A stretch of DNA of 64,000 nt, from NCBI RefSeq assembly GCF_988243305.1, contig NZ_OZ547136.1; one strand, 5' to 3'. The position numbers and the translations under genes were made by a program. The notes below the pieces were generated by a model. That model did not search any database. It saw only the letters and a list, made by a program, of their open reading frames with translations, and was not told the origin of the DNA. Of this stretch, positions 2,732 through 58,279 are shown in pieces. The number at the start of each line of letters is the position of its first letter. Position 1 is the first letter of the stretch.

Positions 2732-3403
2732 ATGGGTATTAAGGGAATGTGGAAAGACCTTCGCACTTCACCGGTGGACACGCTGGTAAGATGGCAAGAA
2801 CAACGTTTTTTGTGGTTGTTAATGGCCATTGCGATGGGCGCGTTAATTATCCTGGCGCACTCTTTCTTCCAGATCTATCTCTACATGGCACCCTGTGAGC
2901 AATGTGTATACATTCGCTACGCCATGTTTGTGATGGTTATTGGAGGATTGGTTGCAGCGATCAACCCAAAGAACATCATCCTAAAGCTAATTGGCTGCGT
3001 GATGGCATTTTACGGCAGCATTTTGGGACTGAAGTTTTCGCTCAAACTGAACGATATCCACCATGCAGTACATAATCCGGATCCCGATTCACTGTTTGGC
3101 GTACAGGGTTGCTCTACCGATCCAACTTTTCCCTTTAACCTGCCGCTGGCACAGTGGGCACCAAATTGGTTCAAGCCTACCGGGGATTGCGGCTATGACG
3201 CCCCAATCGTTCCTGATGGCGTCACACTGAGCAGCATGCAACAGTGGTTTGTGGAAATGTATCAGCAATCTGAAGGCTGGTATCTGCTACCACCATGGCA
3301 TTTTATGAATATGGCTCAGGCTTGTATGCTGGCTTTTGGTATGTGTCTGGTGCTGCTGGTCATTATGAGTGGCGCATGGGCGCTTAAAATCATCAGAGGC
3401 TAA
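2732..3403 (+). CDS. dsbI: Inner-membrane disulfide oxidoreductase, DsbB paralogue (223 aa)
   Basis: Multi-pass membrane protein with paired cysteines (CEQC), third gene of the assT operon. Confidence 0.8.
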
Positions 3404-3448
3404 CTCAGCAACACCCAAAGCCAGTCATTCTGGCTTCGGGTTCTTTTA

Positions 3449-4237
3449 TTAACCTATCTGCACCGACAGCATACTTAAACTGCCCATCTCTATGCCATCA
3501 ACCGGAACAGTCACCGGCTCCTGACCATCCCACGCACCTAATACATACAACAGTGGCAGAAAGTGTTCCGGTGTTGGGTTCGATAACGCCCCTCCTTCAT
3601 GGTCGAGGTAATTCACCAGAGGATGCTGCTCTACCGGCCCTTGCCACGTCAGATTCGCTTTCACATACTCATTAAACGACATCGCCCACGGATACGGTGA
3701 ACTATCACCGTGCCACTTCACTGTGCGCAGGTTATGTACCACGTTACCGCTGGCGACCAACATTATTCCTTCATCTCGCAGCGCTGCCAGTTTACGCCCC
3801 ATCTCAAGGTGCCAGGCGGCGGGTTTGGTGCTATCAATACTTAACTGCACCATCGGGATATCCGCTTGCGGATACATCTTAATCAGCACGCCCCACGAGC
3901 CGTGGTCAAAGCCCCAGGCTTCTTTATCCAGCGTCACCGGGACCGGCGCTAACAGCTCAACCAGATGCTGTGCCAGCGCAGGCGAACCCGGAGCAGGATA
4001 ATGCGTGTCGTACAGCGCCTGCGGGAAGCCACCAAAGTCATGAATCGTGGGCGGCGTCTCCATCGCGGTCACTCCTGTTCCACGGGTAAACCAGTGAGCC
4101 GAAACCACCACAATCGCTTGCGGGCGTGGCAATGTCATCCCCAACTTCTGCCAGCTGCGGGTATACAAATTATCTTCCAGCACGTTCATCGGACTACCGT
4201 GACCTAAAAACAATGCTGGCATACGTGTTGAAGACAT
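3449..4237 (-). CDS. ygiD: Class III extradiol dioxygenase-like protein (DOPA-dioxygenase family), 262 aa
   Basis: Translation MSSTRMPALFLGHGSPMN...; ORF-track start at 4264 is further upstream, ATG at 4237 chosen to match the known 262-aa length. Confidence 0.8.
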   Translation of the reverse strand: MSSTRMPALFLGHGSPMNVLEDNLYTRSWQKLGMTLPRPQAIVVVSAHWFTRGTGVTAMETPPTIHDFGGFPQALYDTHYPAPGSPALAQHLVELLAPVPVTLDKEAWGFDHGSWGVLIKMYPQADIPMVQLSIDSTKPAAWHLEMGRKLAALRDEGIMLVASGNVVHNLRTVKWHGDSSPYPWAMSFNEYVKANLTWQGPVEQHPLVNYLDHEGGALSNPTPEHFLPLLYVLGAWDGQEPVTVPVDGIEMGSLSMLSVQIG

Positions 4238-4379
4238 GATGATATCCTTAACTAAAGGTGTCATTTTGATATCCTCACAATACGCTTGTTCGGCGGAGTA
4301 AGAACCCGGATAACAATGATGATGATCATCAGTTATTTTGACGATCTGCCTGAAGGTGAAGATTTATAAGGAGTTGTCG

Positions 4380-5153
4380 ATGTCAGTACCTCTCATTCTG
4401 ACCATACTGGCGGGGGCAGCCACGTTTATTGGCGCGTTTCTCGGCGTTCTCGGGCAAAAACCCTCGAACCGCTTACTGGCGTTTTCGCTAGGATTTGCGG
4501 CGGGGATCATGTTGCTCATCTCATTAATGGAAATGCTTCCTGCCGCACTAGCAGCCGAAGGAATGTCGCCTGTGTTGGGTTATGGAATGTTTATCTTCGG
4601 TCTGCTTGGCTATTTTGGCCTGGACCGCATGTTGCCACATGCGCATCCGCAGGATTTAATGCAAAAATCGGTGCAGCCGTTGCCAAAATCGATCAAGCGC
4701 ACAGCCATTCTGCTCACTCTCGGCATCAGTCTGCATAACTTCCCGGAAGGGATTGCCACCTTTGTCACTGCGAGCAGCAACCTGGAGCTGGGCTTTGGCA
4801 TCGCACTGGCCGTTGCGTTACACAATATTCCTGAAGGTCTGGCGGTTGCAGGCCCGGTTTACGCGGCAACGGGGTCTAAACGCACCGCGATTCTTTGGGC
4901 GGGGATTTCTGGACTGGCAGAAATTCTTGGTGGTGTGCTGGCGTGGTTAATCCTCGGTAGCATGATTTCCCCGGTGGTCATGGCGGCAATCATGGCGGCG
5001 GTTGCAGGAATTATGGTGGCGCTCTCGGTTGATGAATTAATGCCGCTCGCCAAAGAGATTGACCCTAATAATAACCCCAGCTATGGCGTACTATGTGGAA
5101 TGTCAGTGATGGGATTCAGTTTAGTGCTGCTACAAACGGCGGGAATTGGTTAA
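4380..5153 (+). CDS. zupT: Zinc transporter, ZIP family (257 aa)
   Basis: ATG at 4380 preceded by AAGGAG; ORF-track start at 4338 is a TTG; polytopic membrane protein with HNxPEG motifs. Confidence 0.9.
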
Positions 5154-5163
5154 AAACAACATC

Positions 5164-5192
5164 AGAAGTTGTCCAGCGCATGGACAACTTCT
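5164..5192. terminator. Perfect 12-bp inverted repeat (AGAAGTTGTCCA/TGGACAACTTCT, 5-nt loop), probable bidirectional terminator
   Basis: Read directly in sequence between convergent zupT and the small minus-strand ORF. Confidence 0.6.
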
Positions 5193-5210
5193 GCCAGCTT
5201 CACGAAAGCC

Positions 5211-5381
5211 TTATTCTACCTTTTCGGCTGTCTCTTCTCTCGTACTGTTTAAGTATTTGTTCCGCGCTTCAAGCAGTGCGTCTCTGTCCTGGCGAAACGC
5301 CCGACAATAACGTTTCAAATGCAGGAAATAACCCACCACAACCAGAGCAATCAATACAATCCAGTACCAGGCGATAAACAT
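5211..5381 (-). CDS. Small single-pass membrane protein (56 aa), hypothetical
   Basis: ATG at 5381 preceded by AAGGGTAAAAGG; one hydrophobic helix (FIAWYWIVLIALVVVGYFL) followed by a charged tail; ends at the bidirectional terminator. Confidence 0.45.
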   Translation of the reverse strand: MFIAWYWIVLIALVVVGYFLHLKRYCRAFRQDRDALLEARNKYLNSTREETAEKVE

Positions 5382-5642
5382 CCTTTTACCCTTAATATTT
5401 AACAATACTAAACATTTAGCGCATAAATTTCACATATCCTTTTTCGGATATATTCATATGGTCGCATAATAACGGAACAATTATATGATTTTGATCATAA
5501 TGAAAAAGAATGCCTGATATTAATGAAATTTTCTCATAGAAAGAGAAGCGGAATTAACATCTTGCATAGCAGGGAAAAATAAAAACCGAAGCCTGCTACA
5601 ACTTCGGTTTCTTGATTAAGGCAGTAAATTAAGCAGCGGTTT

Positions 5643-6296
5643 TCAGCTGGCTTTACGCTCATGTGCCTGACGATAAGCCACCAGGTCTTCAATAGTCACG
5701 AGCGCCATATTGTGTTTATTGGCAAACTCAATGCACTCTGGTGCACGCGCCATCGTGCCATCGTCATTAGTCAGCTCACACAGCACACCAGCCGGTTTAA
5801 AGCCTGCCAGCGTCATCAGATCAATAGTCGCTTCAGTATGGCCGCCACGCGTCAGTACACCACCAGCCTGAGCGCGAAGTGGGAAAACGTGGCCCGGGCG
5901 ATTCAGATCAGAAGGTTTTGCGTCATCGGCAATCGCTGCGCGAACGGTCATAATACGGTCAGCGGCAGAAACACCGGTAGTCACACCTTCAGCCGCTTCA
6001 ATGGTCACGGTAAAACCGGTGCCATAGGCGCTGGTGTTATTTTCTACCATCATTGGCAGATCAAGTTGTTTACGGCGATCTTCAGTAATGCACAGGCAAA
6101 CAATACCGCTACCGTGGCGAATGGTCAGCGCCATCTGCTCAACGGTCATGGTTTCTGCCGGGAAGATCATATCGCCTTCGTTTTCACGGTCTTCATCATC
6201 AAGCACCATTACACCGCGTCCTTCACGCAGCGCAGCCAGTGCATTTTCAACACGTTCGAAAGGCGTACCAAAAGAGGAAAGTAGCGTCTGATTCAT
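5643..6296 (-). CDS. ribB: 3,4-dihydroxy-2-butanone 4-phosphate synthase (217 aa)
   Basis: Translation matches RibB full length; upstream FMN riboswitch. Confidence 0.95.
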
Positions 6297-6540
6297 GGTA
6301 AAAAAACCTCACTAAAATTATGGTTACCAGAATCAGGGCAGTCTTAGGAGTGGCGGCATATAGCCAAAATAACGTGAGCGGGTCCATGCCCGACAGAATC
6401 GTTACTCTCTCCCATCCGGACTCTAACCGTCGGCCCCGGAATTACACCGGATCTGCTGTCCTTTGAGTTCGCACCCAAAGCGCTCGCGGGCTTTCAACTG
6501 AGTTGATTTACCGCCGGTGGGGAATTTCGCCCCGCCCTGA
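6297..6540 (-). ncRNA. sroG: FMN riboswitch (RFN element / sroG) in the ribB leader
   Basis: Minus-strand sequence contains the conserved RFN core (AGGGCGGGGCGAAATTCCCCACCGGCGGTAAATCAACTCAGTTGAAAGCCCGCGAGCGCTTTGGGTGCGAACTCAAAGGACAGCAGATCCGGTGTAATTCCGGGGCCGACGGTTAGAGTCCGGATGGGAGAG) at about 6400-6538. Confidence 0.9.
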
Positions 6541-6669
6541 GAATAAGCGGATTCACTATAACGCTAATGATTAGCGGCAGCAACGCATAGCTTCACATAA
6601 TTCTGGTTTATGACTTACCCTTATCGCACTACAATGGCACTCAACACCTATCAGTACAGGGAAACTACA

Positions 6670-6969
6670 ATGATTGACCCGAAAAAAATTGAGCAAATCG
6701 CTCGCCAGGTTCACGAATCAATGCCTAAAGGAATCAGGGAGTTCGGGGAAGATGTGGAGAAAAAAATCCGCCAAACCCTACAAGCGCAGCTGACGCGTCT
6801 CGATCTGGTAAGCCGCGAAGAATTCGACGTTCAGACGCAAGTCCTGTTACGGACTCGTGAAAAACTGGCGTTACTGGAGCAGCGCATCAGTGAACTGGAA
6901 GCGCGCAATAATTCGGTAGCAGATCTTCAATCTCCTCCGGCTATCCCGCCTATTGATAAAGCAGAATAA
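6670..6969 (+). CDS. ubiK: Ubiquinone biosynthesis accessory factor UbiK (YqiC), coiled-coil protein (99 aa)
   Basis: Translation [16 protein letters not shown]... with leucine-zipper-like C-terminus; ORF-track start at 6610 is upstream of the known start. Confidence 0.8.
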
Positions 6970-6982
6970 AGCAACACAAAAA

Positions 6983-6999
6983 CGGGCCAGACGGCCCGT
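6983..6999. terminator. Short GC hairpin (CGGGCC-AGAC-GGCCCG) between convergent ubiK and glgS
   Basis: Inverted repeat read in sequence. Confidence 0.5.
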
Positions 7000-7003
7000 A
7001 ATA

Positions 7004-7204
7004 TCAGTGTTCTAATTCAAGTTCTCTGGTTTGCATCATCTGTTGGCAATACCAGGCATAACGTGCGCAAAACCAGGTTCTATGTTCTTCATCCATGTTA
7101 CCAGTAACGGCCAGAATATCGACCGGGCGACCTTCTGCGTGCATTCTGGCAAAACTACGCGCCAGGAAATCGAAATTATTTAAAGAATTAAGACTATGAT
7201 CCAT
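7004..7204 (-). CDS. glgS: Glycogen synthesis / surface-composition regulator GlgS (66 aa)
   Basis: Translation [36 protein letters not shown]... Confidence 0.9.
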
Positions 7205-7473
7205 AAGCACATCCTCCGGTTATCGCATACCTTTTAAGGCCATATGCTTTTTCTGATTTCAGTATTCCCCAATCAGTGTAGTGCCTTTAAACATAACGTG
7301 CGTAAATATATTGTCCCCGATCACACTTTTTAGTGAAAAAATAAAAAACCATATTAAAAGACTATCTCTTCCAGAACTTATCTAACATGTGTTATTATTA
7401 ACAAAGATAAATGTAAGCAAGGAAACTATCCCAAAGTAAATATTGCGTCACTAAATGGACATTGGAGTGACAT

Positions 7474-8103
7474 ATGATTTTATTCGCCGACTATAACACC
7501 CCTTATCTTTTCGCTATTTCCTTTGTACTGTTGATCGGCCTTTTAGAAATTTTTGCGCTTATCTGCGGTCACATGATCTCCGGTGCACTTGATGCACATC
7601 TTGACCATTATGATTCCATAACCACAGGTCATATTAGCCAGGCACTTCATTATCTCAATATCGGAAGATTGCCAGCTCTCGTCGTTCTTTGCTTACTGGC
7701 TGGTTTTTTTGGTCTTATTGGCATCCTGTTGCAGCATGCCTGCCTCATGGTCTGGCAATCACCACTTTCGAACCTGTTCGTGGTTCCTGTCAGTTTACTG
7801 TTTACGATTATTGCGGTGCATTATACCGGTAAAATAGTTGCGCCCTGGATTCCACGCGACCATAGTTCAGCTATTACAGAAGAAGAATATATTGGTAGCA
7901 TGGCATTAATTACCGGTCATCAAGCCACTTCAGGTAATCCCTGCGAAGGAAAACTCACCGATCAATTTGGCCAAATACATTATTTACTACTGGAGCCTGA
8001 AGAAGGAAAAATTTTCACTAAAGGAGACAAAGTGTTAATTATTTGCCGACTTTCTGCAACGCGATATTTGGCGGAAAACAATCCCTGGCCCCAAATATTG
8101 TAA
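7474..8103 (+). CDS. yqiJ: NfeD-like inner membrane protein (209 aa)
   Basis: ATG with GGAG RBS; hydrophobic N-terminal half plus soluble C-terminal domain; upstream partner of SPFH protein YqiK. Confidence 0.85.
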
Positions 8104-8129
8104 TTTATTAATCAAAAGGAAATTTAATA

Positions 8130-9791
8130 ATGGATGATATTGTTAATTCTGTGCCCTCCTGGATGTTTACTGCGATTATTGCCGTATGCATTCTGTTTAT
8201 TATTGGAATTATTTTCGCCAGGCTCTATCGTCGCGCTTCGGCAGAGCAAGCTTTTGTTCGTACTGGTTTAGGTGGGCAAAAAGTGGTAATGAGCGGTGGC
8301 GCAATCGTGATGCCGATCTTTCATGAAATAATCCCCATCAATATGAATACTCTGAAGCTGGAAGTCAGCCGCTCAACCATTGATAGCCTGATTACGAAAG
8401 ATCGTATGCGCGTCGATGTAGTAGTCGCTTTCTTTGTGCGGGTAAAACCGTCAGTGGAAGGTATTGCCACCGCCGCCCAGACGCTGGGGCAACGCACCCT
8501 GTCGCCTGAAGACTTACGTATGTTGGTTGAAGATAAATTTGTCGATGCCCTCCGTGCAACAGCTGCACAAATGACCATGCATGAGTTACAGGATACCCGC
8601 GAGAACTTCGTGCAGGGCGTACAAAATACCGTAGCTGAAGATCTGTCGAAAAATGGCCTGGAACTGGAAAGCGTTTCACTTACCAACTTTAACCAGACGT
8701 CGAAAGAACATTTCAATCCTAACAACGCCTTTGACGCCGAAGGTTTAACCAAGCTGACGCAGGAGACGGAGCGCCGTCGTCGCGAACGTAACGAAGTTGA
8801 ACAGGATGTAGAAGTTGCGGTGCGTGAGAAAAACCGTGATGCGCTTTCGCGGAAGCTAGAGATTGAACAACAAGAAGCGTTTATGACGCTTGAGCAGGAG
8901 CAGCAGGTTAAAACCCGTACCGCTGAGCAGAATGCGAAAATTGCGGCTTTTGAGGCCGAGCGTCGTCGGGAAGCAGAGCAGACGCGAATTCTGGCTGAAC
9001 GACAGATTCAGGAAACGGAAATCGACCGCGAACAGGCCGTCCGTTCCAGAAAAGTTGAAGCTGAACGTGAAGTTCGCATTAAAGAGATCGAACAGCAGCA
9101 GGTCACCGAAATCGCTAACCAGACGAAATCGATCGCTATTGCCGCCAAATCGGAACAACAGTCCCAGGCAGAAGCGCGTGCTAACCTTGCACTTGCAGAA
9201 GCGGTAAGCGCCCAGCAAAACGTAGAAACAACTCGCCAGACCGCAGAAGCCGATCGTGCTAAACAAGTTGCCCTAATCGCTGCCGCGCAGGATGCAGAAA
9301 CCAAAGCGGTTGAACTGACCGTGCGGGCGAAAGCAGAGAAAGAAGCCGCAGAGATGCAGGCGGCGGCAATCGTTGAGTTAGCCGAAGCTACGCGTAAAAA
9401 GGGTTTGGCGGAAGCAGAAGCGCAACGTGCGCTGAACGACGCTATCAACGTACTTTCTGATGAACAAACCAGCCTTAAATTCAAACTGGCGCTATTACAG
9501 TCGTTACCTGCAGTAATAGAGAAATCCGTTGAGCCGATGAAGTCTATCGACGGCATCAAGATTATTCAGGTCGATGGATTAAACCGAGGTGGTGCTGCGG
9601 GGGATGCGGCATCAGGCAGCGTTAGTGGCGGAAACCTGGCAGAACAGGCATTATCAGCCGCACTCTCTTACCGCACACAGGCACCACTGATTGACTCCTT
9701 GCTCAATGAAATTGGCGTTTCAGGCGGCTCACTGGCTGCATTGACTTCACCCTTAACCTCAACAACTCCCGTCGCAGAAAACGTAGAATAA
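8130..9791 (+). CDS. yqiK: SPFH/band-7 (flotillin-like) membrane protein with long Ala/Glu/Gln-rich coiled coil (553 aa)
   Basis: N-terminal TM segment, SPFH-like region, then extended AEAERR-type heptad-rich segment. Confidence 0.85.
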   Translation: MDDIVNSVPSWMFTAIIAVCILFIIGIIFARLYRRASAEQAFVRTGLGGQKVVMSGGAIVMPIFHEIIPINMNTLKLEVSRSTIDSLITKDRMRVDVVVAFFVRVKPSVEGIATAAQTLGQRTLSPEDLRMLVEDKFVDALRATAAQMTMHELQDTRENFVQGVQNTVAEDLSKNGLELESVSLTNFNQTSKEHFNPNNAFDAEGLTKLTQETERRRRERNEVEQDVEVAVREKNRDALSRKLEIEQQEAFMTLEQEQQVKTRTAEQNAKIAAFEAERRREAEQTRILAERQIQETEIDREQAVRSRKVEAEREVRIKEIEQQQVTEIANQTKSIAIAAKSEQQSQAEARANLALAEAVSAQQNVETTRQTAEADRAKQVALIAAAQDAETKAVELTVRAKAEKEAAEMQAAAIVELAEATRKKGLAEAEAQRALNDAINVLSDEQTSLKFKLALLQSLPAVIEKSVEPMKSIDGIKIIQVDGLNRGGAAGDAASGSVSGGNLAEQALSAALSYRTQAPLIDSLLNEIGVSGGSLAALTSPLTSTTPVAENVE

Positions 9792-9989
9792 ATTTTCAAC
9801 TATGAACATCCCTGGCCCAAAAAGCCGGGGATTCTTTATATCTGCGTTCCGATAAAAAGTGCAAATGATCGGGCTGTTGCAGCATTTTGCGTGACCGCTC
9901 GGGGAAGGCAAAACTGCCTCTGGGTAAGCATTGCGCGGGGTCCGGCGTTCATCAACAATCGGGAAGTCAGCAAGGGGCTGAAACGGGAA

Positions 9990-10135
9990 AGCCCCTCCCG
10001 AAGAAGGGGCCTTGTATAAGGAAAGGGTTATGATGAAGCTCATCATCATACTGATTGTGTTGTTACTGATAAGTTTCCACGCTTACTAACAGCCAATCAG
10101 AGGGGGGAGAAATCCTCCCTCACCCTTGTTCCTTT
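9990..10135 (-). ncRNA. sibD: Sib antisense sRNA (antitoxin) overlapping the first ibs ORF; boundaries approximate
   Basis: Established knowledge that Sib RNAs of ~110-150 nt are encoded fully antisense to ibs; ends not determinable from sequence alone. Confidence 0.45.
10030..10089 (+). CDS. ibsD: Ibs-family type I toxin, 19-aa hydrophobic peptide (MMKLIIILIVLLLISFHAY)
   Basis: ORF read directly; fits the Ibs peptide family; location between yqiK and hldE as for ibsD/ibsE in K-12; D versus E assignment is by order only. Confidence 0.75.
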   Translation: MMKLIIILIVLLLISFHAY

Positions 10136-10365
10136 ACTTTAGGTTGAAAAAAAATCAGCGTCAAGAAGGTTTCATTAACACATATTCCTGGCCCAAAAAG
10201 CCGGGGATTTTTTATATCTGCATTCCGCAAAAAACTGCAAATGCTCAGGTCGTTGCAGCCTTTTGCGTGACCGCTCGGGGAAGGGAAAACTGCCTCTGGG
10301 AAAGCGTTGCGCGAGGTCCGGCGCTCATCAACAATCGGGGAGTCAGCAGGGGGCTGAAACGGGAA

Positions 10366-10510
10366 AGCCCCTCCCGAGGAAGGGGCCTTGTATAAGGAAA
10401 GGGTTATGATGAAGTTCGTCATCATACTGATTGTGTTGTTACTAGTAAGTTTCCAGGCTTATTAACAACCAATTCAGAGGGGGGAGAAATCCTCCCTTAC
10501 CCTTGTTCCT
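10366..10510 (-). ncRNA. sibE: Sib antisense sRNA (antitoxin) overlapping the second ibs ORF; boundaries approximate
   Basis: As for the first copy. Confidence 0.45.
10406..10465 (+). CDS. ibsE: Ibs-family type I toxin, 19-aa hydrophobic peptide (MMKFVIILIVLLLVSFQAY)
   Basis: Second copy in the tandem repeat, read directly. Confidence 0.75.
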   Translation: MMKFVIILIVLLLVSFQAY

Positions 10511-10585
10511 TTACTCTAGGTTGAAAAAACAACAGCGTCAATAGGCCCACCTGCTACGAAGCGAGATCTGTGAACCGCTTTCCGG

Positions 10586-12019
10586 TTAGCCTTTTTTATC
10601 CTGTTGGATCTTCTTGATGATGTTGGTCGTCGAGCAACCGTCTTCAAAGTTGAGCACCAACACTTCGCCACCGTTGGCCCAGACTTCTTTACTCCCGGCA
10701 ATCTCTTCTGGTTTATAGTCGCCACCTTTCACCAGCAGGTCTGGCAGGATCCCGGCAATTAAGCGCTGCGGCGTGTCTTCTTCAAACGACACCACCCAGT
10801 CGACCGCTTCCAGTGCGCCCAGCACAATCATACGCTGTTCGAGCGGGTTAACGGGGCGGGAATCCCCTTTCAGCCGTTTGGTGGAGGCATCGCTGTTCAC
10901 AGCGACAATCAGGCGGTCACCCAGTTTGCGGGCATTTGCCAGATAGGAGACGTGCCCGGCATGGAGAATGTCGAAGACGCCGTTGGTCATCACCACTTTT
11001 TCACCGCGTTTACGCGCTGCCGCTACAGCAAGCTTCAGTTCCTCTTCGGTCATCACGCCAAAGCCGGTATCTGCACGTCCACGTACTGCGTTTTCCAGCT
11101 CGATCGGCGAAACTGTGGATGTCCCCAGTTTGCCGACCACCACGCCTGCCGCCGCATTGGCAAAGAAGCAGGCTTCTTCCAGTGAATTACCCGCAGCCAG
11201 CGTTGCCGCCAGGACGCCAATCACCGTGTCGCCCGCACCGGTAACGTCATACACTTCCTGCGCCTGAGTTGGCATATGCAACGGTGCTTTACCCGGTTGC
11301 AGCAGCGACATACCCTGTTCGGAACGGGTCACCAACAGAGCCGAGAGTTCGTAATCGGCAATCAGTTTCATGCCGCGCTCAACAATCTCTTCTTCGGTCT
11401 TACATTTACCGACAACAGCTTCAAATTCCGAGAGATTCGGCGTTAACAGCGTAGCGCCGCGGTAGCGCTCAAAATCGGTACCTTTTGGATCAATCAGCAC
11501 CGGAACACCCGCTTTACGCGCCAGTTGGATCATCTGCTGTACGCTTGCCAGCGCACCTTTGGCGTAGTCAGAAAGCACCAGCGCGCCAATCGAACTCAGT
11601 GCCTGATTAATCCGCTCGTGCAGCGGCTGCGGATCAACCCCTTCGAAACCTTCTTCAAAATCCAGACGGATCAGCTGTTGGTTGCGGGAAAGTACCCGTA
11701 ATTTGGTGATGGTCGGATGCGTCGGTACAGAAACGAAGTCGCATTTGACGTTGACGTCGGCCAGAGATTTACTCAGTGCGCGCGCCGCATCGTCAATGCC
11801 CGTCAACCCGACCAGGCGTGCATTAGCACCGAGAGAAGCGATATTCATCGCCACGTTAGCCGCGCCGCCCGGACGTTCTTCGATGGTATTCACTTTAACC
11901 ACGGGCACCGGCGCTTCCGGCGAGATACGACTGGTGGGGCCGTACCAGTAACGATCCAGCATCACATCACCAACCACCATCACTCCTGCACGTTCAAACT
12001 CTGGCAGCGTTACTTTCAT
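10586..12019 (-). CDS. hldE: Bifunctional D-beta-D-heptose 7-phosphate kinase / heptose 1-phosphate adenylyltransferase (477 aa)
   Basis: Full-length match to HldE (RfaE); ribokinase-like N-terminus and cytidylyltransferase-like C-terminus. Confidence 0.95.
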
Positions 12020-12066
12020 TCCTGTCTCCTGAGAGATTCAAAATTTGCGCGCGATAATACCATACT

Positions 12067-14907
12067 TCATTCTTCCACCAGCCACTTCTGCCAGCTTACC
12101 CGCACCAGTTCACGCTCTGCGGTGAAGCAATCCTCCGGCACATGGCCCGGCAATTCCTGTAATGCCAGATGATGAAGTTCATCGCGCAGCGTCGTGTAAG
12201 CACGGGTCAGCGCCATCGCTTCCTGCTCTTCCATAATGTCGTTTTGCGCCAGCAGCTCCAGAATACGCACGTTGTCTGACCAGCGCGTTAACTTCGGTTT
12301 TTCATGAGCGTAGCGCAACACCAGATATTGAGTAATAAATTCGATATCGGTAATTCCGCCTTCATCGGCTTTGATATCAAAGCGATCGCGATGTTTATTG
12401 CCGAGATGAGCGCGCATTTTCTCGCGCATTTCCCGCACTTCCGTTTGCAGAGTTTTACCTTCTCGCGGCAGTGTCATAATCTCGCGACGCACCGCGTCAA
12501 AGTGCGCGGTGAGCTGCGGATCGCCGTACACTACACGCGCACGCACCAGCGCCTGATGTTCCCACGTCCAGGCCTCGTTTTTCTGATAATCGGCAAACGC
12601 TTCTGCGGATGTCACCAGCATTCCCGCCGCCCCGGACGGACGCAACCGTGCATCCACTTCATACAAAATGCCGGAAGAGGTTCGCGTACTGAACAGATGC
12701 ATAATGCGTTGCGCCAGACGCAGATAAAACTGTCGCCCGTCGATTTCCCGCTCGCCGTCAGTCATCGCATCCATTGGGCAATCATGGAGGAAGATCAGGT
12801 CAAGATCGGAACTGTAGCCTAACTCCCAGCCGCCCAGCTTGCCGTAGCCGACCACCGCAAAACCACGCCCTTCGCGTTCGTTCAGGTGATTTGGCTTACC
12901 GTAGCGGACAACCATTTGAACCCACGCCTGCTGAACGACGGCATCTATCATAGCCTCCGCCAGCCAGGTTAAGTGATCGCTCACTTTCATTACCGGTAGC
13001 GTACCGGCGATATCCGCTGCCGCAATACGTAACAGTTGCGCCTGTTTGAACTGACGCAGCGCCTCAAGCTGTTGTTCTTCGTCATCTTCCGGCACACGCA
13101 GCAAATACTGGCGCAGTTCATCACGGTAGGCATCCGTCGCCGTCGGTTGGTAGAGAGTGTTTGGATCGAGCAGTTCGTCCAGCAATAATGGATAACGCGC
13201 CAGTTGGCTGGCAATCATCGGCGATGCAGCACACAGAGAAATCAAATGTTTAAGCGCCGCAGGGAATTCACTAAGCAGCTCAAGATAAGTGGTGCGAGTA
13301 ACAATCCCCACCAGCAAGGCGGTAATGCGCGACAGCGTGACAGCAGCGTCTTCACGCGCACAGACATCACTTAGCAGATGCGGCATCAGATGGTCGAGCA
13401 CCTGACGCCCGCGCGGCCCGATGGTACGCTTATCCAGCTCTTTGCGAAAATCGGCAATCAGCGTCAGCACCTGTTTGCGATCGTCCTCGCTAAGATGCGC
13501 CAGCACTGGTGTAGTGTCATCTTCCTGCAACGCGTCCTGCCACAGCTCACGCCACTGTTCCGACAGCGACTCTTCCTGAGTTTCACTTTCGTCGTCGCCA
13601 ATCAATTCATTAAACACCCGGCGCACATTGGTCATATGTCCGGTCAGCGCCCCAGTCAGTTGCTGCCAGTCAGCAAAGTCCATCGCCCACGCCAGCCGCG
13701 CACGGTTAAGCTCATCAGAAGGAAGCGTCTGGGTTTGTTCGTCGTTAATACTTTGCAGCAGGTTTTCCAGACGCCGCAGGAACAGATACGCCACTCGCAA
13801 TTGTTCAGCATCGTTTTCAGAAAGCAGATGCAGCGCGGCAATGGCGCTGAGCGTTGGCAGTAAAGAGCGCGATTGCAGCGATGGTTCGCGCCCGCCGCGA
13901 ATGAGCTGGAATACCTGGACAATAAATTCAATTTCACGAATGCCACCCGCGCCAAGTTTGATGTTGTCGGTCAAACCGCGTCGACGCACTTCGCGGGCAA
14001 TCATCCCTTTCATGTTGCGCAGCGACTGAATCACGCTGAAATCGATGTAACGACGGAAAACAAACGGGCGCAGCATCGCACGCAACTCGTTAGCATAGAC
14101 GCCTTCGCTATCGCCCATAATCCGCGCCTTAACCATCGCGTAACGCTCCCAGTCGCGCCCCTGCTCCTGGTAATAATCTTCCAGCGCCGCAAAGCTCAGC
14201 ACCAGCGGGCCACTTTCGCCAAACGGACGCAGCCGCATATCCACGCGATAGACGAAGCCATCCTGCGTTGGTTGATCCAGCACTTTAATCAGCCGCTGCC
14301 CCATGCGGGTAAAAAACTGGGCGTTATCCAGTTCCCGGCGTCCACCCTGCGTACAACCATGTTCCGGCCAGGCAAAAATCAGATCGATATCAGAGGAGAA
14401 ATTCAGTTCCCCGCCGCCCAGCTTACCCATGCCTAAAATCAGCAGCGGTTGCGCTTCGCCCTGCGCATTGCACGGCGTTCCCCATTCGCGGCAGCAGGCG
14501 TCATACAGCCAGTCACGCGCCGCAACAATCAGCGTCTCCGCCAGATGGCTGAGCTGCTGCAATATGCTCTCTTCAGTAACCAGTGCCAGCGTTTGCGCCC
14601 AGGCAATGCGCACCATAATGCGCCGCCGGAATAGCCGCAGTTCACGCATTAACCCGGCTTCGTCACTCACATTACTGAGCGCCTCCTGCAACCAGGCAGC
14701 GTAATGCTGCCATTCGTCGGCCTGCGGCGGTTGGCTTTCCAGTTCCGTCAGCCACTCTGGATGCGCAATTATGCTGTCCTGCACAAAATCACTAAAAGTA
14801 AGTACTGACTTCGCCTGTGCGCTAAGTGATTCCTCGGCTAAAGGCTCTGGCAGCCGCTCAACAACGGTCTGCCAGTACTGCTGTAACGGTGAAGAGAGCG
14901 GCTTCAT
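12067..14907 (-). CDS. glnE: Glutamine synthetase adenylyltransferase / adenylyl-removing enzyme (946 aa)
   Basis: Translation from [21 protein letters not shown]...; ORF-track start at 15111 overlaps ygiF and is not the real start. Confidence 0.9.
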
Positions 14908-34560: not shown

Positions 34561-49189
<14,629 letters not shown>

Positions 49190-49293
49190 ATCAGCATACT
49201 TGTCCTTAGCCTTCTGCAGTGACAGCTGGTAGTACAGCGTGCTTCTGGCCAGCCCTGCAGCCTTTAACAGGTCAGACTGGCAGTGTCCGCATC

Positions 49294-49815
49294 TCAGGCT
49301 CCGGATGACTTTCGTTTTTTCTCCAGCTCCTGGCGCTTTTTTTCCAGGAGATGCTCCTGCATGGCTTTCAGATATGCATTTTCTGCGCGAAGATAACGCA
49401 GCTCATTCTTCATCTCTTCCGGCGTCATGTTTGCCTCGTTTTCATGGGTATCATCAGAACGGGTCATGCTTTTCTCCTTCCTGCGCCTGATAAAGGCCTC
49501 ATCACCAGATTTGCGGTAGCCTTTTATCCAGTTTTTAACCGTGTTGTGGCTGGGAATGTTAAACCGGGCAGCTACCCGGGGTAGAGACTCAGAATGCCCG
49601 AGAGCATAAAGAACCACGCAAAGTTTATCTTCAGGAGAATAGCTACGCCTGTGTCTGCAATCCAGTGCCCGAGGACCGTGAAGAAGAAAAAGATTAATCC
49701 AGTGTGAGAGGCTGGTGTGAGAAAGTTGAAAGAGTTTTGCCGTAGAAATGATGCCAGCATGACCGGCCAGGTAATGATTTACAGCGGCAAGTTTTACTTC
49801 AAATGAATGTTTCAT
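49294..49815 (-). CDS. IS3-family transposase OrfA (HTH), 173 aa
   Basis: MKHSFEVKLAAVNHYL... with C-terminal leucine-zipper-like region; A-rich runs near the 3' end are candidate -1 frameshift sites. Confidence 0.85.
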   Translation of the reverse strand: MKHSFEVKLAAVNHYLAGHAGIISTAKLFQLSHTSLSHWINLFLLHGPRALDCRHRRSYSPEDKLCVVLYALGHSESLPRVAARFNIPSHNTVKNWIKGYRKSGDEAFIRRRKEKSMTRSDDTHENEANMTPEEMKNELRYLRAENAYLKAMQEHLLEKKRQELEKKRKSSGA

Positions 49816-49986
49816 AAACTGCACCTTCAGATGTCAGATTATGTCCAACATTTGGGGTGCAGTTCACAAGCGTCGTATCCGGCATTTCCAATGGGCGTAT
49901 TCTTTTTGAATCCCATCACAAACCCCGCACTCCCCTTTTCCCTTTTCTCCGGCGACGGCTAAATTAGAACTCATCCGACCACATAA

Positions 49987-52076: not shown

Positions 52077-52493
52077 TTAATCAATAAACAAGGCGGGAGA
52101 AATGCCGAATCGCGTTGCCAGTTTTTTAGCGTGTTCCAGCGTTAATTTCCTCTTCCCGCTCAAAACGCGTGACACCATGGATTTACTGCCAATTTCCGGA
52201 AGATCGGAAAGGGTTAAACCATATTGATCCATAAGGGTACGAATCACGGCTATACCGCCAGGCATGGCTTGAGCCATGGCATTAAATTCAGCAAATTCGG
52301 GCGCTGATTCTTCCCACGCGGTTATTTTGGCACACACCAGATCCAGCAAGGGATTTTCAGGATCGTTGAGCAGCAGATGATCTACCAGTTCCAGCGCCTG
52401 GGTGTATTGTTCCTCGTTCTGAATACCCGCCAGAAAAGGTGCCACAGCAGTTAGCTTTTCTCCTGCTTGCAAGATGTCGGCAATCGCAATCAT
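52077..52493 (-). CDS. higA: HigA antitoxin, XRE-family HTH (138 aa)
   Basis: MIAIADILQAGEKLTAVAPFLAGIQNEEQYT...; C-terminal HTH; the ORF track reads it as part of a 177-aa ORF (see pseudogene). Confidence 0.85.
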   Translation of the reverse strand: MIAIADILQAGEKLTAVAPFLAGIQNEEQYTQALELVDHLLLNDPENPLLDLVCAKITAWEESAPEFAEFNAMAQAMPGGIAVIRTLMDQYGLTLSDLPEIGSKSMVSRVLSGKRKLTLEHAKKLATRFGISPALFID

Positions 52494-52610
52494 TTTTTCC
52501 CCTTTGAAATATCCCTTAGCAATCGTGTTCCCCAGAGCCACCAACTCCGTTTTATGTTGCGGGTATTTTTCCGCAGCATCTTTCAATGCTTTTTGAGTTA
52601 TCAGGTGCAT
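52494..52610 (-). pseudogene. higB: Remnant of higB toxin gene: first ~35 codons only, fused in frame to higA
   Basis: ATG at 52610 gives MHLITQKALKDAAEKYPQHKTELVALGNTIAKGYFK, matching the HigB N-terminus from memory, then runs into the higA start; the rest of the ~104-aa toxin is missing. Confidence 0.65.
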
Positions 52611-56698: not shown

Positions 56699-57664
56699 AT
56701 GAATACTGTCGGCACGCCGTTGCTATGGGGCGGATTCGCTGTTGTTGTCGCCATTATGCTGGCTATCGACCTGTTGTTGCAGGGGCGTCGTGGGGCACAT
56801 GCCATGACCATGAAACAGGCTGCGGCCTGGTCGCTGGTCTGGGTGACGCTGTCGTTACTGTTTAACGCCGCTTTCTGGTGGTATCTGGTGCAAACCGAAG
56901 GACGCGCCGTTGCCGATCCACAGGCACTGGCCTTTCTCACGGGTTATCTGATTGAGAAATCGCTGGCGGTCGATAACGTCTTTGTCTGGCTGATGTTGTT
57001 CAGCTATTTCTCTGTTCCGGCGGCGTTACAACGGCGCGTGCTGGTGTATGGCGTGCTCGGGGCGATTGTTCTGCGTACCATCATGATCTTCACTGGCAGC
57101 TGGCTGATTTCGCAGTTCGACTGGATCCTGTATATCTTCGGTGCCTTCCTGCTGTTTACCGGCGTGAAGATGGCGCTGGCCCATGAAGATGAATCAGGCA
57201 TTGGCGACAAGCCGCTGGTGCGCTGGCTGCGCGGTCATTTGCGCATGACCGACACCATCGACAACGAGCATTTCTTTGTGCGTAAGAATGGCTTGCTGTA
57301 TGCCACGCCGCTGATGCTGGTGCTGATTCTGGTGGAATTGAGCGACGTGATTTTCGCCGTGGATAGCATTCCGGCTATCTTCGCCGTGACCACTGACCCG
57401 TTCATTGTGCTGACCTCAAACCTGTTTGCGATCCTCGGCCTGCGTGCGATGTATTTCCTGCTGGCGGGCGTAGCAGAACGTTTCTCGATGCTCAAATATG
57501 GCCTGGCGGTGATTCTGGTGTTTATCGGTATCAAGATGCTGATTGTCGACTTCTACCATATTCCAATCGCCGTCTCGCTGGGCGTGGTGTTTGGCATTCT
57601 GGTGATGACGTTTATTATCAACGCCTGGGTGAATTATCAGCATGATAAGCAGCGGGGAGAATGA
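56699..57664 (+). CDS. alx: TerC-family membrane protein, putative Mn/redox-associated exporter (321 aa)
   Basis: Polytopic TerC-like protein. Confidence 0.9.
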
Positions 57665-57757
57665 TTCGCTGTATATTAAGCCATTACTAGAGATAACTCA
57701 TTCCAGACAAAGGTGAGCTATTAATTATGTAATCGGCTTATAGCTCTTTACAAAAAG

Positions 57758-57985
57758 ACCGCACGGGTGTTGGTGGCGTCAAAATCGCCGAAGCGTTCCC
57801 TGGAGGCCGGGGCGACGCGCATGGATGCGCGGCGAGGGCGCATCTTACAGGGACGTTCCCTTGCGCCCGACCCGGTAGCCGCAAGGGATAAGCTGAGGGA
57901 ACCGCGCAGCGGCGATTTTGTTCGCCAGAGCCTGGGGGTGCAGGGGGCGGCGGCGATTGGCCGCCCCCTGCGCGCTCCCTGCGGT
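57758..57985. other. GC-rich highly structured intergenic element of unknown nature
   Basis: Perfect 12-bp hairpin GCAGGGGGCGGC/GCCGCCCCCTGC (57940-57971); long-range inverted repeat CAAAATCGCCG (57780-57790) / CGGCGATTTTG (57910-57920); several smaller GC stems; both overlapping ORFs have non-protein-like composition. Confidence 0.5.
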
Positions 57986-58279
57986 AGTGACTTTATATGG
58001 CATAGCACATTAAAGGAGCGCAACCGTTCTCATATACCAAATAGTTTTGCCCATATGTTATCTAATCAGCCTTAGTAGCCAGTCCTTCCCTCTGTTTATG
58101 TCAAATAAATGTAACCATTAAGTTGCAAAATATGACCTCTCTTTAAAATCCAGCATTTTTCGCTTCCCGAAGCTGTAACTTTCCTTATACTCGACCTTGC
58201 AAACACTTTGTTACATCCTGAAAGATGCGTCGACAGAACGCACCAGGGATGTGCGACAACACAATGAAAGGATCGAAAA

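Follow-up and report, generated by a model that had tools for sequence, protein, structure and literature searches.

The junction between ubiK and glgS in the window, by which we mean the whole 64-kb stretch of Escherichia coli chromosome analysed here, is contiguous, and we propose that it retains the ancestral arrangement of a locus that has been invaded by a fimbrial operon in most other sequenced E. coli. According to this account, to which we assign as a whole a probability of roughly 0.88, the enterobacterial ancestor would have had two convergent genes with a terminator hairpin between them. The lineage of the window would never have received the ygiL-yqiGHI operon, and hence would not have lost it by deletion, and the operon would have entered E. 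coli elsewhere through one recombinational import.

The gene order in the window reads ygiC-(assT-dsbL-dsbI)-ygiD-zupT-yqiD-ribB-ubiK-glgS-yqiJ-yqiK-sib/ibs-hldE. Analysis of the two proteins encoded at the junction showed that UbiK matches the Pfam family PF04380 (BMFP) with 96.2 bits (cut-off 37.2, E = 1.6e-27) over residues 1-78, while GlgS matches PF08971 with 153.9 bits (cut-off 32.2, E = 1.1e-45) over its full length. A gene identical to the ubiK of the window is annotated as ubiK in CFSAN061763, and GlgS is a single residue apart from its K-12 counterpart in the alignment (T59 in the window, A59 in K-12). A preliminary description of this DNA had stated that only 34 bp with one short hairpin separate the two convergent genes, and on this point the open reading frame coordinates and a terminator scan agree (Table 1). 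When the K-12 proteins YgiL, YqiG, YqiH and YqiI were used as tblastn queries, no fimbrial homologues or remnants were detected in the 64-kb window; genes for an usher, a chaperone, a major subunit and an adhesin are all absent from the ubiK-glgS site, and the spacer between the contiguous genes is likewise free of fimbrial genes or their remains.

Table 1. Coordinates of the features at the ubiK-glgS junction and at the neighbouring yqiD-ribB site (positions in the window).
Feature	Position	Strand	Description
yqiD-ribB intergenic region	5382..5642		Other fimbrial site, unoccupied in the window; 261-bp gap
ubiK (yqiC)	6670..6969	+	99 codons + stop; TAA at 6967-6969; open reading frame list, Pfam BMFP
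Left flank block	6798..6900		ubiK nt 129-231; 15/103 differences from K-12, mostly synonymous; window has the apparently ancestral version
Segment without alignable K-12 counterpart	6901..6972		72 bp: last 23 ubiK codons + stop + 3 bp (blastn)
Convergent intergenic spacer	6970..7003		ubiK stop to glgS stop, exactly 34 bp
Right flank block	6973..7035		Hairpin loop + glgS 3' end; 12/63 differences from K-12
Hairpin	6982..6999	-	7-bp GC-rich stem + 4-nt loop, ACGGGCC-AGAC-GGCCCGT (terminator scan)
glgS	7004..7204	-	66 codons + stop; stop codon 7004-7006; open reading frame list, Pfam GlgS

The corresponding interval in K-12 MG1655 (NC_000913.3) is very different. According to the annotation, ubiK ends at 3185130 and glgS starts at 3191739, and the 6,608 bp between them hold ygiL, yqiG split by IS2I (insC5/insD5), yqiH and yqiI. 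This is the order that the preliminary description had given for K-12, IS2 copy included, and its reading of the window as an empty-site configuration is borne out by blastn against K-12 and by tblastn with the fimbrial proteins, both of which show the operon to be absent. In the alignment that it had proposed between the two intervals, window 6000-6900 corresponds to positions 4171-5071 of the K-12 locus and window 6973-7800 to positions 11709-12535 (blastn), such that 72 bp of the window stand against 6,637 bp of K-12, consisting of the K-12 strain's own ubiK tail, ygiL, yqiG::IS2, yqiH and yqiI; ubiK does not adjoin glgS in K-12. It should be noted that the variable segment is not the 34-bp spacer itself. 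On the left it begins within ubiK at about 6900, donor-type substitutions being present from 6798 onwards, and on the right it ends at about 6973-7035. The K-12 genes ygiL-yqiGHI have been classified as 'Yqi-like' chaperone-usher fimbriae (Wurpel et al. 2013, PMC3559732), and the window differs from this known occupant of the ubiK-glgS site in carrying the unoccupied allele.

The locus had also been said to vary between strains, and it does so. In a survey of 5,426 complete E. coli genomes, of which 5,425 gave a match, the junction is contiguous as in the window in 2,062 (38%) and of the K-12 type, with ubiK followed by ygiL, in 3,362 (62%); the two forms together make up 5,424 of the 5,425 matching genomes. 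The ubiK-glgS site harbours a single kind of insert in all but about 2 genomes and is not a hotspot for varied cargo. These counts also bear on the explanation that the adjacency is an assembly artefact, produced by the collapse of a repeat or an insertion sequence. We consider this extremely unlikely, as the same contiguous junction is present in 2,062 complete genomes, many of which are 100% identical to the window over 701 bp, and as genera outside Escherichia have the same arrangement.

The polarity of the difference was judged from 80 outgroup loci, which were obtained by a UbiK scan of species-representative genomes, a sample that extends to neither E. fergusonii nor the majority of the cryptic Escherichia clades. 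Wherever a glgS homologue exists among these loci, it lies next to ubiK, 29-95 bp away and in convergent orientation. The adjacent pair is found in E. albertii L010, in Escherichia L003 (a second Escherichia lineage, ~90% identical to the window), in S. arizonae L022 (Salmonella enterica subsp. arizonae), in eight Citrobacter loci and in Raoultella, Klebsiella, Superficieibacter and Pseudocitrobacter. The spacer measures 29-35 bp in E. albertii, Escherichia L003 and Citrobacter spp., and the ACGGGCC/GGCCCGT stem is kept in most outgroup loci, with loops that vary (Escherichia, Salmonella, Citrobacter, Raoultella, Klebsiella). The window is thus collinear with the outgroups, matching them in adjacency, in the stem and in a similar UbiK tail, and because the outgroups share these features, we conclude that the contiguous, empty form is in all likelihood ancestral and the operon a derived insertion.

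The opposite polarity, i.e. an ancestor that carried ygiL-yqiGHI as K-12 does and a window lineage that lost it by deletion, draws some plausibility from the frequent decay of fimbrial operons. The occupied strains that we sampled have an identical four-gene operon architecture, some of them with decay: in K-12, yqiG is interrupted by IS2, in IH5 the usher gene contains an internal stop, and in TL012 an IS1-associated deletion has removed ygiL and the 5' end of the usher gene. A deletion from a K-12-like ancestor could not, however, recreate a UbiK tail, a spacer and a hairpin of the outgroup type, and in the window all three line up collinearly with their counterparts in E. albertii, Salmonella and Citrobacter. 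Moreover, the window lacks the substitutions that typify the flanks of the occupied form on either side, and fimbrial remnants are absent from it by tblastn. Taken together, these observations render the loss of a resident operon very unlikely. The related idea of a deletion scar at the junction was dropped, as the tblastn search with YgiL, YqiG, YqiH and YqiI came back empty. In individual lineages an occupied allele may conceivably have been replaced by an empty one through recombination; even so, the incoming allele would still be ancestral.

How the operon arrived is suggested by the distribution of differences between the window and K-12, which is sharply bounded. There are 0 differences in 397 positions at 6401-6797 and 1 in 265 at 7036-7300, and between these conserved stretches lie the two flank blocks (Table 1) and the ubiK tail, which with 38 differences in 69 positions is unalignable. 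A long linked haplotype, with raised divergence extending far into the flanks, was considered and rejected, since the differences are raised over no more than ~100 bp on the left side and ~60 bp on the right side. Haplotype alignment showed that the flank blocks are common to the occupied strains K-12, IH5, 2014C-4587 (B1-type) and TL012 and absent from the empty-site strains EC958 and O157:H7. The four occupied strains, which come from A-type and B1-type backgrounds, have one and the same junction haplotype.

On the basis of these patterns, we propose that the operon was acquired once, by a single E. coli lineage, through homologous recombination with a donor, probably outside E. coli, whose ubiK and glgS were ~15-19% divergent and in which the operon already lay between these two genes. 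Crossing over would have taken place within ubiK (~6798) and within the glgS 3' end (~7031), and the import would at the same time have swapped the last ~23 codons of ubiK for a foreign tail. The operon is now present in ~62% of sequenced E. coli, including K-12, in which the disruption of the usher gene by IS2 would be a later event. The notion of one gain is based on the junction haplotype common to the four sampled occupied strains and on the genome counts, not on a tree. The K-12-type yqiI, which 3,354 genomes possess, falls into classes of at least 99%, ~92% and ~89% identity, and the distance of up to 11% between alleles of the occupied class may be due to repeated import or to diversifying selection acting on the adhesin. 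When the 80 outgroup loci were searched with blastn and tblastn, no donor emerged for the ubiK tail and the intergenic region of the K-12 type, and the matches amounted to a generic resemblance among UbiK tails.

A different mode of entry would be site-specific, with the spacer and its hairpin serving as an att-like target for varied mobile elements. The locus does differ between strains, and the neighbourhood is plastic, a second fimbrial operon being found 1.3 kb away in other strains. Several observations nevertheless make such a target highly unlikely. One type of cargo is seen across the 5,426 genomes, the annotated K-12 region contains no integrase, recombinase or tRNA, and a search for direct and inverted repeats at the boundaries of the K-12 insert returned chance matches only, apart from the terminal inverted repeats of IS2 inside yqiG. 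The hallmarks of an integrase island with att sites, that is, an integrase, a tRNA and flanking direct repeats, are thus missing. Furthermore, the left boundary lies in ubiK rather than at the hairpin, the hairpin is intact on the glgS side, and bounded blocks of 15-19% divergence point instead to homologous recombination, the route that we favour.

The proposed import would also have affected UbiK. Since the left boundary is located inside ubiK, K-12-type strains encode a UbiK with another C-terminal tail; K-12 is the strain behind the biochemistry of E. coli UbiK. The window protein has 99 residues and that of K-12 has 96. Their tails differ from residue 78 on, just past the BMFP domain (1-78), and the allelic tail (78-99) is accordingly outside the domain. 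The tail in the window fits the PAPAIPPVDPQE type of Salmonella, Citrobacter and Enterobacter; the K-12 tail does not, and consists of a different 19-residue C-terminus encoded at positions 5072-5131 of the K-12 locus. It is still UbiK-like, as comparison with the 80 outgroup loci by blastn and tblastn revealed a resemblance to the Buttiauxella/Enterobacter-type ELENR...PPT, and because of this resemblance we regard the K-12 tail as a probable homologous foreign ubiK end and not as random sequence. The different C-terminus in K-12-type strains is, in the framework of the recombinational import, a by-product of the acquisition of fimbriae. In ~62% of E. coli, UbiK would accordingly be a chimera whose last ~20 residues are unrelated to the ancestral proline-rich tail kept in the window. 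One may speculate further that, should the tail matter for the UbiJ-UbiK complex or for attachment to the membrane, ubiquinone biosynthesis would not be the same with the two alleles; separately, the mutual exclusion of fimbrial operons described below could stem from functional interference and not from ancestry. We consider these extensions improbable.

The hairpin between the two genes is terminator-like. Six of the 7 pairs in its stem are G-C, and on the minus strand the stem is followed by TTTTGTGTTG; folding of the 53-nt hairpin context gave -19.2 kcal/mol, with z = -4.5 relative to shuffled sequences. The combination of a GC-rich stem-loop and a subsequent U-tract, which defines an intrinsic terminator at the sequence level, was found on the minus strand, that is, for glgS, and we therefore predict that the hairpin is the canonical intrinsic terminator of this gene. 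It resembles the intrinsic terminators common to convergent genes in having a GC-rich 7-bp stem and a 4-nt loop between two convergent stop codons, and the likeness extends to the U-tract on the glgS strand and to a stem that is conserved across genera while the loops vary. Unlike such terminators, the E. coli hairpin has no U-tract after the stem on the plus strand, on the ubiK side, where only the stem is present; in some Citrobacter species a T-run is found on the ubiK side of the hairpin instead. The K-12 hairpin is kept beside glgS, and both forms of the site thus have it. No Rfam family was found in the spacer at the gathering threshold, and positions 5000-11000 gave only an FMN riboswitch (6400-6548) and two Sib RNAs. 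The latter belong to two tandem copies of a Sib RNA/ibs toxin-antitoxin unit on the minus strand (10015-10164 and 10391-10541), an arrangement also seen in K-12 (sibD/ibsD, sibE/ibsE), while EC958 has one copy; nowhere else in the flank do strains diverge as much as in this interval, where their identity is 89-93%.

A second site for fimbrial genes, between yqiD and ribB, lies 1.3 kb to the left of the ubiK-glgS junction. EC958 (ST131, B2) has a contiguous ubiK-glgS pair, yet it carries a 4,973-bp chaperone-usher operon of four genes between yqiD and ribB, and the alignment of the window with EC958 breaks at 5499/5645, where this operon sits. The major subunit, usher, chaperone and adhesin of EC958 are 60, 56, 50 and 38% identical to YgiL, YqiG, YqiH and YqiI, respectively. 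The operon's length fits the 4,975 bp published for the 'yqi' (ExPEC adhesin I) cluster (Antão et al. 2009, PMC2771359), also known as Yqi (Ygi), which is a homologous four-gene operon in the same neighbourhood. It differs from the operon discussed so far in occupying yqiD-ribB instead of the ubiK-glgS junction, and the window does not carry it, as its yqiD-ribB gap contains no homologues by tblastn. Some genomes of Citrobacter, Enterobacter, Klebsiella and Pseudocitrobacter have related clusters in this position, upstream of ribB.

Within the survey set, the ExPEC adhesin I (EA/I) operon is located at yqiD-ribB in 994 of the 5,426 genomes, and 1,080 genomes (~20%) are contiguous across both fimbrial sites, as are the window and O157:H7. 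Together with the 3,362 genomes of the K-12 type these classes sum to 5,436, i.e. 10 above 5,426, and because the sum is so close to the number of genomes, the Yqi-like and EA/I operons are almost perfectly mutually exclusive. The excess of 10 is attributed to a handful of genomes whose EA/I copies are incomplete or lie elsewhere, such as one plasmid match and one 36% fragment.

Both operons have been described in earlier work. The EA/I gene was reported in 54-66% of ExPEC and in no intestinal pathogenic strain, nor in K-12 or O157 (Antão et al. 2009, PMC2771359). 'Yqi' (B2) and 'Yqi-like' (A, B1, D, E) fimbriae were subsequently described as closely related, mutually exclusive and clade-specific, with distinct locus positions, and they were proposed to have been acquired through horizontal transfer or homologous recombination and then to have been inherited vertically or lost (Wurpel et al. 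2013, PMC3559732). With respect to function, the cloned CFT073 Yqi operon confers binding to terminal β-GlcNAc and to fucosylated glycans (PMC8545135). The presence/absence polymorphism at ubiK-glgS is ordinary and already catalogued (Wurpel 2013, Antão 2009). We did not find the outgroup polarity argument, the exact boundaries, the swap of the UbiK tail or the 62/38 split described in these papers, and a search of the literature for the two genes together with fimbriae gave promoter catalogues only. What is added to the published picture is small: a probably ancestral empty form, a signature suggestive of a single import from a divergent donor, and the change in the UbiK tail. The junction marks a strain that has neither the Yqi-like nor the ExPEC adhesin I operon, a double-empty state that is a useful accessory-genome marker, being common to ~20% of complete E. 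coli genomes; beyond such bookkeeping its significance is limited, and it raises no new question of general interest.

Several other features of the window deserve mention. Over 25 kb, the best match among the 5,426 complete genomes is 98.9%. Between ygiC and ygiD lie assT (aryl-sulfate sulfotransferase, 235-2031), dsbL (2049-2717) and dsbI (2732-3403), which are absent from K-12 and O157:H7 and present in EC958, CFSAN061763 and Escherichia L003; the alignment with K-12 begins at 3446. Shortly thereafter, inside ygiD, positions 3501-4000 show ~90-92% identity to CFSAN061763, O157, EC958, K-12 and a B1 strain, as compared with 97-100% in the adjoining stretches, and this segment is probably a small recombinant import.

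Further to the right, a 3.4-kb insert relative to K-12 is found between ygjK and fadH (46486-49865). It contains a 513-aa open reading frame (46733-48274) that has three internal repeats and matches no Pfam family, adjoined by IS3-family orfA (49294-49824) and orfB (48467-49189) on the minus strand. The alx-sstT intergenic region (57657-58095) is 438 bp long, compared with 221 bp in K-12, and the two versions are not alignable. Finally, at 52077-52610 on the minus strand, 192 bp of K-12 higB (3234156-3234347) are missing, and what remains is a 177-aa open reading frame in which approximately 36 N-terminal residues of the toxin HigB are joined in frame to the antitoxin HigA; the HigB toxin thus appears to be inactivated in the window.
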